The notes beneath the pieces were generated by a model, which saw only the letters and a list, made by a program, of their open reading frames with translations, ran no database searches and was not told where the DNA came from. 64,000 nt of DNA from the NCBI GenBank assembly GCA_964016885.1, contig OZ024748.1:7440001-7504000 (forward strand). Reading direction: 5' to 3'. The position numbers and the translations under genes were made by a program. Numbering within the stretch: position 1 is the stretch's first letter; the number at the start of each line of letters is the position of its first letter. Positions 47,360 to 52,134 of the stretch are shown in pieces. Source of the stretch: Eledone cirrhosa (lineage: Eukaryota).

Positions 47360-47475
47360 AATTCCTTTCGTTGCAGCACTGATTCTCTTTTTTCTGTGAT
47401 ATCATACTCTTCTCTATGAGAGCATCGAGTGCTCATACGGCCTACCGCATACGGACACTTTAAGCATCCAACACC

Positions 47476-47478
<3 letters not shown>
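47360..47478 (+). mobile_element. TA-terminated short tail carrying a GAGCA-TCGAG-TGCTC hairpin
   Basis: Hairpin at 47420-47434, about 44 nt before (TA)n; loosely related to 17520-17640 (-). Confidence 0.5.
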
Positions 47479-47510
<32 letters not shown>

Positions 47511-47513
<3 letters not shown>

Positions 47514-47999
47514 TAGGGCAGGTAAAATTCCCGAGATCCATGGACGAGTTCTCTCCAACGGTCTCTGTCCTTCATTATCGCTGCCATGTCCTGCTTCTCC
47601 AACAGACCAGTGTCTGTCCTTAGGGCATCAACATACGTTAACCTTGGTCTTCCTTTTCCAGTGTGTCCATGTAGGGGCTCCCACAGGAGCACTGAGTGCA
47701 ATGTCAACTCTGGATGTCGGTGAGCATGTCCAGCTAACCTCAGTCTCCTATGTGTCACTTTTGAGCTGACTTTTCGGAGGCTCCCATACAGCTCTGAGTT
47801 TTTCATGCTCAGTGTATACTGATTAATGTTCAGAACCATCCTCAGCATTCTCGTGTAGCACCCATCCACCATCTGAGTGAGTTTCTTGGTCAGTGTCCAA
47901 GTCTCAGACCCGTACAACAGCATAGACTCAACTACAGCAATGAAGAGGCGGATTTTCAGGTTTTTACGAAGGTCCGATTTCCACACCGATCTCAAGCTT
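47511..47999 (-). mobile_element. 5'-truncated RTE-clade LINE (RT C-terminal region)
   Basis: ESMLLYGSETWTL, RRLRLAGH, GKGRPRLTY, DRDRWR motifs; ends at the stop codon directly in (TA)n. Confidence 0.92.
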
Positions 48000-48509
48000 A
48001 TATATATATATATAATTATATATTAACAAGTGTGTGTGTATATGTATACCTTACTGATTTATATGTAAATTTGGAGAGAAATTATTATAAAATTACAAGC
48101 TGTAGAAAGAACCACCCATGCAGTCACACACCTATGGACTCCATTTTATAGCAGCAGTTTAGAAATGCAGTTCTATAGATATTATTTCTACCTCACTATA
48201 GCTCACTGTACTACTGTATTACAACAGCCTTGAAATTGTGGAGGGTGGCTTTAGATAATAGCTTCATTTAGATTATATTGTGTACTAGGATGGTTGCCTC
48301 AGTTAAAATAAATCTCATGTATGCATGTATGGTTGTATTTACGTATTTATTTATATATATAAGTATTTGAATATGTACGAACATATCTACGAGTATGTAT
48401 ACACATAATTATATATCTACATATAGGTATATGCATATATATCTATATGTAGATATATAATTATGTGTGTGCTTATATATATATATAGATCATTGTGTGT
48501 GTGTGCATA

Positions 48510-48561
<52 letters not shown>

Positions 48562-48569
48562 ATAGAGCA

Positions 48570-48618
48570 GTTTCAGAAGATCCTGTTAAGGGTGAAAGCA
48601 GCGATTCTTTGCTTAAAC
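48570..48618 (+). ncRNA. Hammerhead-like motif, family F (variant core CAGAAGA)
   Basis: GTTT-CAGAAGA-TCCT-GTTAA-GGGT-GAAA-GCA-loop-TGC-TT-AAAC; second copy at 60821-60890. Confidence 0.6.
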
Positions 48619-48736
48619 CTTAATCGGTTACTTTAATTTAAAAAAATATATATGTATATATAGGTATGTATGTATATATATATTATATATATATATAAGA
48701 ATAACTGTGATTACATATACCGTGATTACATATATA

Positions 48737-48777
<41 letters not shown>

Positions 48778-48822
48778 GATTAATTGATACCAAAGAGAAC
48801 CACAGATAAATATGGTACCTAT

Positions 48823-48922
48823 TTGACTTTGGCTTTCATCCTTACGGGGTCGATAAAATAAAGTACCAGTAATACACTGGGCAATTGCTGGCCTTGTGCC
48901 AAAAGTAGAAACAATTATTATT
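48823..48922 (+). mobile_element. 5'-truncated Meta-like SINE
   Basis: Near-identical to 16789-16885. Confidence 0.88.
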
Positions 48923-49021
48923 TCATAGAGAAATGAGAAATTAATTCTACATGACTAGAAATGATTCGAAGATATTCTTCATCATTTCAGACGAATGGCA
49001 TAGATCTAGTCGACAGACCTT

Positions 49022-49118
<97 letters not shown>

Positions 49119-49579
49119 ATGTGTGTGTGTGTGCGCGTGTGTGTGCGTGCATGTGTGTGTGTGTGCGTGCGTGTGCGTGTGTGTTGTGTGCGTATATATA
49201 TACGATTTTTAATGCGATGAAATACCAATGATGGTTGGAAAATCACTGACGAAGGACTATTTTTATCATATGTAACCCATGTACAAACCACGCAGTATTC
49301 TTCTTTATTCTCATGTTTTATATATATATATATATAAAATATAAATATTTACATATATGCGTATGTGTGTGAGTTTGTGTATATATTATATGTATATATA
49401 TATGTTTGTATGCTAGAAAGATGGAATCGAAATTCTAAACTTGTTTATTGCTTTACAATTATTTCAGGTGTGTTATATATCATTAGCAGTTAGTTAAAAT
49501 ATATTTTATAGGTAATTTGAGCAGAACAATGAAGAAACAATAAATGAAATGAATATATATATATATCAATAATATTAAG

Positions 49580-49782
49580 AAGTGGAAGCTATCTTTATAA
49601 AACCATATATATTTTATTATATATATTTCAAGGGTACAAAAATTTTGGTACGCTCTCATCAAAGTAAGGTACTTAATACATAAAAGAGTATAAATATTTA
49701 ATATATAATTGGGAGAAATCATCAGGAAGTCCAGGTGATTTCTCCCAAATGAAACAGTTTTAGTCCTGTAGAAGCCATTTAT
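49580..49782. mobile_element. Chimeric family B/family C hammerhead element with inversion
   Basis: Minus: CTTCCTGATGATTTCTCCC..GTATTAAGTACCTTACT-TTGATGA-GAGCGTACC..GAAATATATA; plus: TGATTTCTCCCAAATGAAACAG..CTGTAGAAG. Confidence 0.75.
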
Positions 49783-49789
49783 ATATATA

Positions 49790-49877
<88 letters not shown>

Positions 49878-49878
<1 letters not shown>

Positions 49879-50059
49879 TAGATGAGATTCTACAGGACTA
49901 GAACTGTTTCATTCTTTAGAAGTCATTCCTGATGATTTCTAAAGAATGAAACAGTTCTAGTCCTGTAGAATCTCATCTATATTAAAACTTTTATACTCTG
50001 CAATGTATTGAGTACCTTACTTACTGTGGTTACCTCCGATTCAACCCGGAATAACGTAC

Positions 50060-50062
<3 letters not shown>
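49878..50062 (+). mobile_element. Family B fold-back element
   Basis: 49878-49926 is the reverse complement of 49932-49980; tail ends CCCGGAATAACGTA; TA flanks. Confidence 0.88.
49925..49971 (+). ncRNA. Complete type I hammerhead motif, family B
   Basis: ATTC-CTGATGA-TTTC-TAAA-GAAT-GAAA-CAG-TTCTAGTC-CTG-TA/GAAT; predicted cleavage after 49967 (GUA). Confidence 0.85.
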
Positions 50063-50114
<52 letters not shown>

Positions 50115-50123
50115 TATATATAT

Positions 50124-50231
50124 ATGAAAATGTATGACCCCGACGGCAGAGCTCAACCCGTTTCGACGTCATACATTTTCCTATTACCCACTCTACACCC
50201 GTAAGTATTGAGTACTCTGGTGCGTTATGTT

Positions 50232-50235
<4 letters not shown>
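50124..50235 (+). mobile_element. Family A fold-back element (internally deleted)
   Basis: Inverted GTATGACCCCGACGGCAGAGCTC..TTTCGAC, then forward GTCATACATTTTCCTATTACCCACTC..GTATTGAGTACTCTGG. Confidence 0.82.
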
Positions 50236-50282
<47 letters not shown>

Positions 50283-50288
50283 TATATA

Positions 50289-50382
50289 AGGTTATTGAGT
50301 AATTTCGTTTACTGGAGGTGGCACCAATAGTAGCACTCGGTGCTATATTAAGTTTGATAAATATTTCACTTTAAAAGGCTTA
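50289..50382 (-). mobile_element. TA-embedded short tail carrying a TAGCA-CCGAG-TGCTA hairpin
   Basis: Hairpin at 50331-50345, about 43 nt from the TA junction. Confidence 0.5.
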
Positions 50383-50425
50383 TATCTATGTATATACATA
50401 TCACACACACAGACACAAACACATG

Positions 50426-50458
<33 letters not shown>

Positions 50459-50521
50459 AAATATTAAATATATTTATATGTATATATATATATATACGTA
50501 TACATATACATATATATACGT

Positions 50522-50566
<45 letters not shown>

Positions 50567-50581
50567 TATATAGATATATAG

Positions 50582-50621
<40 letters not shown>

Positions 50622-50702
50622 ATACGTATATGTATATATATATATATACATATATATATATACATATATATATACGTATATATATGTATAGATATACATA
50701 TA

Positions 50703-50759
<57 letters not shown>

Positions 50760-50924
50760 GTATACATATACATATATATATATACGTATACACATACATA
50801 TATATATATATACATATATATATCTTATAGCGTATGGTTTATGTGCCCTGATATATATATGGTATTTTATGTATTCACACTTAGATATTTATGTATATAT
50901 AGGGAGTAGTTAATATTTATATGT

Positions 50925-50993
<69 letters not shown>

Positions 50994-51076
50994 TTAGTAT
51001 TTTATGTATATATAATTAGTGTTTTATGCATATATAGACATTTATATTTATATAACTACTGATTTATGTTTATAAG

Positions 51077-51112
<36 letters not shown>

Positions 51113-51191
51113 GGAATATCATTCATATGAAATATGTGTCAGTGTATGTGTGTAGGGGTTTGTGTCTGTGCGTGTGTTCATGTATGTATGC

Positions 51192-51269
<78 letters not shown>

Positions 51270-51387
51270 GGTGATTTACAAGCTAATGAATGATAATGTA
51301 AATTCTTTTGAATATCTTGAAATAGCAGTCGGAGTAAAAATCAATCTAAAAACGGCGCACTATATATATATATATATATATATATAC

Positions 51388-51596
51388 AGGAACGAGTAGG
51401 ACCCCGACGGCTGAGCTCAAGCCGTTTCGACGGCTAATTCTGGACTAAAATGTTTTAGTCCAGAATTAGCCGTCGAAACGGCTTGAGCTCAACCGTCGGG
51501 GTCCTACTCGTTCCTATTACCCACTCTACTACCCTAAGTATTGATAACTTTGGTGCGTTATGGTCCACCTGGTTCCTTACCACATTTCCTTCGTTA
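51388..51596 (+). mobile_element. Family A fold-back element
   Basis: Palindrome centred on CTGGACTAAAA-TG-TTTTAGTCCAG; long arm ends TTCCTTCGTTA(TA)n. Confidence 0.9.
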
Positions 51597-51890
51597 TATA
51601 TATATATATATATATATAGTGTAAGTGATTCAGTGAATTACTGGTCGTGGTAACAATACAAACCCTCGGGGTACGTAATTTTGATAAACTTCCCTTCAAA
51701 ATCCCCTTCAATTTCTCTCTGCATTGAGTGAGATTCTTGTATTTCTCAGGGACTCCCATCATCAAAATCCTGAATTGATGCGCTGAATAGGTTTTAGTAT
51801 CATGTGATAATATTGAAGTTGAAAGACGGGTAAATTATTAATAAAATAATTTGAAGTACCTATTTGGTTATCAATTGATTTTATATATAT

Positions 51891-51942
<52 letters not shown>

Positions 51943-51945
<3 letters not shown>

Positions 51946-52134
51946 CGAAGGAAATGTGGTAAGGAACCAGGTGGACCATAACGGACCAAAGTACTCAATA
52001 CTTAGGGTAGTAGAGTGGGTAATAGGAACCAGTAAGACCCCGACGGCTGAGCTCAAGCCGTTTCGACGGCTAATTCTGGACTCAGAATTAGCCGTCGAAA
52101 CGGCTTGAGCTCAGCCGTCGGGGTCTTACTGGTT

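Follow-up and report, generated by a model that had tools for sequence, protein, structure and literature searches.

In a stretch of 64,000 nucleotides (nt) from Eledone cirrhosa (contig OZ024748.1, positions 7,440,001 to 7,504,000; hereafter the window), short elements that end in TA arrays carry the same small motif, YYGAG, shortly before their 3' ends. Why is it there? The original prediction took YYGAG as the constant loop of a hairpin with a covarying stem, shared by otherwise unrelated element tails, and proposed a cis-acting RNA signal such as a recognition site for reverse transcriptase (RT) or a ruler setting where copying starts. From the comparison of related sequences we concluded that the motif forms the 3' arm of a bulged hairpin in the RNA rather than a loop. 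We observed this fold, its duplication, its location in Penelope-like elements (PLEs) and its link with both element ends. Placed twice between the hammerhead ribozyme and the start codon, the hairpin probably docks the RT, with copying starting a few bases 5' of it.

The window holds 362 TA arrays. Self-BLAST of this animal DNA showed short elements bounded by such arrays, many of them palindromic with unequal arms. Families A, B and C have two classes of end, and families A and B also an inverted arm, which was not seen for family C. This pattern of 5'-truncated PLEs, one arm inverted and the tail optional, has already been described (Craig et al. 2021, PMC8557442; statements on published work refer here and below to the sections of each source that were consulted). 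Hammerhead cores were found in families B, C and D, and in family A the inversion has removed the 5' half of a type I hammerhead, so that only its 3' half remains. The canonical cores at 49929 (+, family B), 53042 (+) and 30500 (−, both family C) place a type I hammerhead in the pseudo-long terminal repeat (pLTR), near the 3' end, as in the Hydra clade of PLEs (PMC8557442), and by eye the family B core fits the Hydra-clade pattern ctgatgat..tgaa-acag..ctgt-a of File S2 in that source. Insertion into (TA)n, likewise known from this clade, agrees with the TA arrays adjoining the window copies; in other runs some copies of the families adjoin CA repeats instead. A decayed open reading frame (ORF) remnant in the window has the CxCX5C linker of the Hydra clade, no CCHH motif and a C-terminal endonuclease (EN), as do the relatives fetched with it:

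38205..38978, − strand: remnant of a Hydra-clade PLE ORF, decayed, comprising the linker and the GIY-YIG end, unattached to hairpin-bearing tails.

No ORF with RT and GIY-YIG domains is attached to any hairpin-bearing tail of families A, B or C within the window. We take the elements to be 5'-truncated PLE ends in (TA)n, and families A, B and C would, by inference, belong to the Hydra clade. They are not the unrelated elements of the original prediction, as all three have Hydra-pattern hammerhead cores or halves and the same hairpin. Naiad identity (no canonical hammerhead, N-terminal EN) was ruled out, because families B and C have canonical cores; in the last ~600 nt of six Naiad consensus sequences the motif was absent by eye. 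Five 9-mers gave four matches in Hydra untranslated regions (UTRs) and four elsewhere in ORF-like context.

Relatives were collected with the ORF remnant, stops read as X, as the query. This gave 44 proteins, which carry the Hydra-clade CxCX5C linker (profile match 98%); the protein alignment comprised 25 of the 120 full-length relatives listed. Selected by protein alone, 92 loci were obtained, 14 from genome contigs and another 78 out of the 80 best of 506 confirmed metagenome stretches, and these formed 72 families at 80% identity. Among viral contigs, none of 17 stretches gave relatives. The 14 genome-contig loci (L001-L014) are contigs with animal-type PLEs inside bacterial metagenome-assembled genomes and a symbiont genome, most likely host contamination.

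The hairpin was present in 53 of the 72 families and in both copies in 36, usually between hammerhead and start codon, twice. The first copy (HP1) follows the hammerhead and the second (HP2) lies 20–47 nt upstream of the ATG. Where a 5' region was available (46 families), two copies were found in 30, three in 1, one in 11 and none in 4. Downstream of the ORF, 91 3' ends were available, 22 of them without a detected hammerhead and 11 too short. Among the 43 informative families the motif stood 43–70 nt past the hammerhead in 32, a repeat array came first in 7 and neither was found in 4, three of which have two motif copies in the 5' region. The search was specific, with 2 matches in 184,620 nt of ORF and none antisense. 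One subclade (L028, L032, L034, L041, L046) has an extra small hairpin, ACTC/GCTC..GAGTAG, ~25 nt past the hammerhead and before HP1. An explanation at the protein level (I/T-E-Y/C codons) was rejected, as the frame in family B contains stops and the motif of the relatives lies upstream of the ATG.

The fold reads 5'-RCUC-(variable stem-loop)-YY-GAGY-RCU-3', in which YY forms a bulge of 2 nt and GAG is paired to the CTC further upstream. Published Hydra-clade consensus sequences (File S7, PMC8557442) have the same letters after the hammerhead, followed by C, and this C breaks the closing pair of the predicted pentaloop. In six new Hydra consensus sequences of the same source the hairpin was seen by eye in four (one with a mismatch) and not in two, and three of the six end 30–40 nt past the hammerhead. 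Within the window, 8 of 122 ends showed the bulged pattern and none of 300 shuffles had more than 3; families were not collapsed for this count and the pattern was defined post hoc.

Covariation was assessed on an alignment of 49 rows, 45 loci and 4 window rows. The bulged fold had 97.2% of its cells paired (83.2% in shuffles) and 49 double-sided changes (14.5 in shuffles), with a score of 0.345; none of 500 shuffles reached these values. Slid registers gave 21–58%. The YYGAG pentaloop fold was paired in 50.0%, a value matched or exceeded by 250 of 500 shuffles, and the stem covariation claimed for it (GTA/TAC against GCA/TGC) was not borne out: a stem of at least 3 bp is possible in 1 of 32 families and the closing pair is A-C in 20 of 32. 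Counted per family, with row L091 taken as unpaired here and in the tree, the upper pairs of HP1 formed in 48/50, 40/48 and 33/37 families, compared with 36.9, 23.4 and 16.4 after shuffling (each reached by 0 of 2000 shuffles). The first of these pairs is T-A in 29 and C-G in 19 of 50 families; on a quick protein tree of 45 rows this switch recurs, counted by eye, at a minimum of six separate places, and sister families differ by A-T/G-C changes. The bulge letters of HP1 are TT in 37, TA in 6, TC in 6 and CT in 1. In HP2 there is nearly always a single C-G above the bulge and the upper stem is weak. At the base of the lower stem a change from G-C to A-U was seen across the window families. G-U wobbles outnumbered A-C mismatches 14 to 3, and this asymmetry points to sense-strand RNA. 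When 23 full 5' regions were folded, the median probability of the lower stem was 0.93 for HP1 and 0.57 for HP2; for the pentaloop closing pair it was 0.

A covariance model built from 43 loci, without window rows, had its nine best window matches in families A, B and C, followed by a match at 62871; it missed the sites at 47420, 50331 and 51662. Single-sequence folding favoured the bulged fold in three of four intact family A copies and favoured the pentaloop at 50331 (0.39) and 51662 (0.51). Copies of family B from four runs vary at nine places, seven in the linker and two in the apical loop, and none in the stems; this invariance is weak support, as the downstream tail is equally without variation. 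No RNA data set was listed as containing family B, which has no bearing on whether it is expressed. A search of Rfam with six full loci (26,307 nt) gave no match at E up to 1, in agreement with the statement that the motif is not a named RNA family; it missed the hammerheads as well, so its sensitivity for short motifs is limited. On the window, the 150 of 568 Rfam matches listed contained only repeat-driven miRNA matches below threshold. The hairpins and the elements that carry them in the window are as follows.

51993..52016, − strand: family A HP1, ACTC-TACT-loop-AGTA-TT-GAGT, 49 nt short of the outer end; E 2e-4 under the model from which window rows were excluded.
51945..52136, − strand: the family A insertion, with an inverted arm stopping at the inner end, the type I hammerhead 3' half, HP1 and tail, flanked by TA arrays.
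59887..59910, − strand: family A HP1 of element 59839-60027, found by covariance model.
30632..30655, − strand: family A HP1 of element 30584-30775, found by covariance model.
2190..2213, − strand: family A HP1 with bulge TC, element 2143-2314, found by covariance model.
50190..50213, + strand: family A HP1 in a copy ending 21 nt past GAG, element 50126-50233, found by covariance model.
51387..51594, + strand: family A copy, hairpin mutated from GAG to GAT, E 1.9.
46817..47009, − strand: family A copy, loop of the hairpin deleted, E 0.18.
49925..49971, + strand: family B type I hammerhead, CTGATGAT..TGAA-ACAG..CTGT-A, the published Hydra-clade pattern (File S2, PMC8557442).
49995..50013, + strand: family B HP1, ACTC-TGC-AAT-GTA-TT-GAGT, found by covariance model.
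52862..52880, + strand: family B HP1 of element 52753-52923, found by covariance model.
53146..53165, + strand: family C HP1, ACTC-CAA-ATAT-TTG-TC-GAGT, 64 nt short of the end, hammerhead core 53042.
30375..30395, − strand: family C HP1, hammerhead core 30500, found by covariance model.
47406..47430, + strand: site of the original prediction at 47420, bulged fold with one mismatch and also a 5-bp pentaloop register, missed by the independent model; probably a diverged member.
50331..50345, − strand: site of the original prediction at 50331 in family F, match limited to the 3' half GCA-CC-GAGT-GCT, lower stem poor.
51662..51672, − strand: ACC-CCGAG-GGT of family G, 46 nt short of the end, with flanks like those of family F, membership uncertain; a hammerhead-like remnant lies ~70 nt upstream.
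62883..62927, + strand: candidate additional hairpin, E 0.026, in which GCTC/GAGC is canonical and the loop is enlarged; a TA array follows after 39 nt.

All motif strings quoted in the original prediction are present in the window, and its distance of 43–50 nt was found again. In family A the motifs at 2195, 30637, 51998 and 59892 (all −) stand 48–49 nt from the TA array; the name "2.2 kb copy" refers to a coordinate, this family A copy lying 2.2 kb into the window, and in the truncated copy at 50208 (+) the motif is only 21 nt from the end. The family B motifs at 50008 (+) and 52875 (+) are 50 and 44 nt from the TA junction, those at 47425 (+) and 50340 (−) 49 and 47 nt, and one site had been overlooked, ACC-CCGAG-GGT at 51669 (−), 46 nt from the end. 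For family C the sequence TCGAGTGC is indeed near the end, at 64–65 nt; the 5' stem said to be lacking is accounted for, because the bulged RCTC-(stem-loop)-YY-GAGY fold fits this family. After 125 TA-abutting ends were collapsed to 105 clusters, five clusters had the motif at 43–50 nt, compared with none in 296 and one in 4 of 300 dinucleotide shuffles. With a looser null (any equally degenerate pentaloop, any 8-nt window) five or more clusters occurred in 10 of 300. On the window alone the distance signal is real and modest. Two weak sites, 17572 (−) at 50 nt from TA and 47164 (+) at 48 nt, were missed by both covariance models. At 50340 (−) and 51669 (−) only the pentaloop register fits, and the covariance models miss both. 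Families F (50289-50385, −) and G (51619-51712, −) are alike on both sides of the CCGAG site, with double-sided differences in the pentaloop register; they may hold a different, triloop-type hairpin or a decayed one.

The hairpin is not universal to hammerhead tails, because family D (hammerhead cores at 46126 (+), 30967 (−) and ~21720 (+)) and the cores at 27472 (−) and 175 (−) gave no motif match with the covariance models. Family D (14001-14090, 21668-21840, 30851-31024, 46107-46260) consists of hammerhead ends entering CATA/TA repeats without the bulged hairpin, and is probably a different PLE clade.

The position of the element ends relative to the hairpins was followed in the relatives. 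Thirty 3' ends were compared with 23 family references: 11 continue to the ATG, 4 stop at a contig end and 15 are junctions, of which 8 pass the alignment score. All eight fall 3–12 nt ahead of the base of a hairpin, HP1 in six cases and HP2 in two, where 2.4 would be expected. Two of the seven unscored junctions are at −16 and −2, and the others, apart from L050, are unaligned or repeated rows. The inner ends in the window are at −5 to −9 in family A (n=8) and at −6, −13 and −18 in family B (n=3). At the 5' side, with only ORF-complete copies counted, 22 non-tandem regions were available, 10 without a usable reference and 4 running to the contig start; the eight usable starts all fall within −14 to +18 of a hairpin base. 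From the GAG of HP1 to the base of HP2 the median is 45 nt (38–54 in 31 of 33 families), and from GAG to the TA array 31–45 nt in 12 of 13 loci. The 12 nt preceding HP1 are 82% A/T. A ruler is therefore probably the wrong description, since the ends sit just 5' of a hairpin, 2–18 nt from its base, and the 45–50 nt are the spacing to a second hairpin that is not copied. The broader claim of a shared cis-acting PLE signal in RNA, tied to where reverse transcription starts, is supported.

We propose that the RT-endonuclease would nick a (TA)n array and, on a tandem or read-through transcript, bind either HP1 or HP2. The nicked TA primer would then sit on the AU-rich stretch 5' of the hairpin, and copying would proceed upstream. 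A start at HP1 would give the short, inner end, and a start at HP2 the long end, whose "tail" would carry HP1 44–50 nt from the junction (64–65 in family C). The optional PLE tail would be explained because two hairpins give two ends, the tail being the interval between them.

Several observations weigh against this proposal or the fold beneath it. The AU-rich stretch alone could set the ends by pairing with TA primers. The 3' end of L050, outside the scored set, stops 65 nt before HP1. The HP2 predicted for families A, B and C was not seen; for family B the contigs show only repeats past the outer end. No hairpin-bearing tail of these families is joined to an ORF in the window, so their clade is known by inference only. 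The second upper pair of HP2 forms in 18 of 38 families, no better than shuffled, and its lower stem reaches a median probability of just 0.57. Single-sequence folding puts families B and C in other upstream registers, and the 47420 site folds preferentially as the pentaloop hairpin (0.85). The published Hydra-1_Obim is by eye without a clear motif. The shuffles used for covariation ignore the relatedness of rows, and metagenome contigs of repeats may be chimeric.

A role in expression was considered, in which the hairpins would overlap with a core promoter, act in RNA stability or in the folding of the hammerhead, or let the element's protein control translation, and the ends would be set by TA-like stretches pairing with (TA)n primers. 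The pLTR houses PLE promoters (PMC2377424, PMC3846280), both hairpin copies are in the 5' UTR with HP2 closely before the ATG, and TA-like words 23–45 nt before the purine of GAGY|RCT resemble the spacing of a TATA box and initiator. However, only 6 of 38 and 4 of 39 cases contained a strict TATAWAW box, all eight usable 5' starts lie upstream of the supposed initiator, and a promoter has no need of covarying pairs with G-U wobbles; moreover, each hairpin has its own end, and not each AT-rich run. We consider this role rather unlikely. Very unlikely, in our judgement, is action of the motif as DNA, with the GIY-YIG endonuclease recognising the duplex or an extruded strand, cutting just upstream, setting both ends and driving tandem insertion into the own pLTR. 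The invariant lower-stem sequence and the clustering of 5' and 3' junctions at the motif would fit, as would the need for the tail in endonuclease recognition in D. virilis, as cited by Frangieh 2024 (PMC11167929), and the attribution of tails to endonuclease cleavage by Craig 2021 (PMC8557442), but the wobbles are strand-asymmetric (G-U 14 vs 3) and the plain TA arrays that received most insertions lack the motif. An RT-bound YYGAG pentaloop that measures 45–50 nt to the point where copying starts fits the sites at 47420, 50331 and 51662, is an alternative fold in family A and could be a lineage-specific switch in F/G-type tails, but with its pairing at the shuffled level, family C at 64–65 nt and many ends 5' of the motif it is extremely improbable.

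RT docking at a bulged hairpin has counterparts in known systems. In the stringent LINEs UnaL2 and ZfL2-1/2 a small tail hairpin, with a functionally needed bulge near the copying start, is bound by the cognate RT protein (PMC1636434, PMC4176376). Like these stem-loops, the hairpin found here is conserved, covaries and keeps a fixed position with respect to the copying start. The LINE hairpin is single, lies 5' of the start, is copied and has a specifically read loop, whereas the Hydra-clade hairpin is twofold and 3' of its own start, and its loop is free to vary while lower stem, bulge and 3' flank are fixed. Poseidon PAc of Anolis, from another PLE clade, behaves similarly at its ends: its RT initiates in vitro at two internal sites downstream of the hammerhead, the sequence between them is the optional tail, an RNA stem-loop is involved and targets are AT-rich (Frangieh 2024, PMC11167929). 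For the Hydra clade itself the account consulted (PMC8557442) has no hairpin downstream of the hammerhead and describes tails of 30–40 bp made by endonuclease cleavage; here they are ~60–90 nt and bounded by two hairpins. We found no description of the hairpin in the consulted text of PMC8557442, PMC4209133, PMC3846280, PMC7229834, PMC6765202, PMC5737381, PMC2377424, PMC13282606 and bioRxiv 10.64898/2026.07.22.740005; figures, Repbase and subscription papers were outside the search. The clade-wide RNA element is real and apparently undescribed, of a kind, the RT-bound bulged tail hairpin, known from stringent LINEs.

Telomerase RNA has protein-binding stems beside a short template. The Hydra-clade RNA would be alike in layout, a structured element beside a short primer-pairing stretch on an internal template; no evidence of repeat addition or of a template boundary, as in telomerase, was found here. 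PLE RTs are sisters of telomerase RT (PMC8557442). We regard it as unlikely that the RNA of Hydra-clade PLEs has the layout of a minimal telomerase RNA, in which a bulged hairpin of 20–30 nt would dock the telomerase-like RT beside a short AU-rich alignment stretch on an internal template, either tandem or circularised by the hammerhead, copying would run from hairpin to hairpin and fix both ends, and AU slippage would add TA repeats and feed genomic (TA)n.

Other features were noted in the window. At 49915-50062, contigs of run X1 join 49992 back to 49925 with ~10 extra letters, giving tandem units of ~78 nt that contain the family B hammerhead and lack the hairpin, possibly a mini retrozyme-like array. 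At 49553-49779 (−) a decayed family B hairpin is directly followed by a family C hammerhead fragment, so that two PLE ends are stacked; the family C fragment stops ~6–7 nt before the expected start of its own hairpin. At 27284-28278 (−) a stop-free frame of 269 codons leads straight into the hammerhead core 27472, whose tail has no hairpin; the ORF (27472-28272) had no Pfam match and no homologue among longer proteins, and the frame may represent an ORF1-like fragment that inserted at the end of a PLE. Two LINE RT 3' fragments, 47512-47998 (−) and 60047-60572 (+), are 93% identical (DUF6451 at E 0.0014); we take them to be RTE-like. A dispersed SINE-like family occurs at 6048-6243, 16696-16886, 26180-26515, 48823-48920, 60092-60238 and 61048-61137, and 33719-33934 is a separate element with a tRNA-like head.

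Template choice by PLEs and the origin of the optional tail have been a puzzle for decades, for which one in vitro study gave internal starts and no conserved signal. A duplicated, covarying hairpin directly behind both start points offers an exact, mutation-ready hypothesis of template choice for the closest relatives of telomerase RT. The hairpin also allows Hydra-clade ends to be recognised when invertebrate genomes are annotated, and may be usable as a small RNA tag for RT-based insertion tools. If the telomerase-RNA-like organisation were true, it would be a portable tag steering the RT to any RNA.

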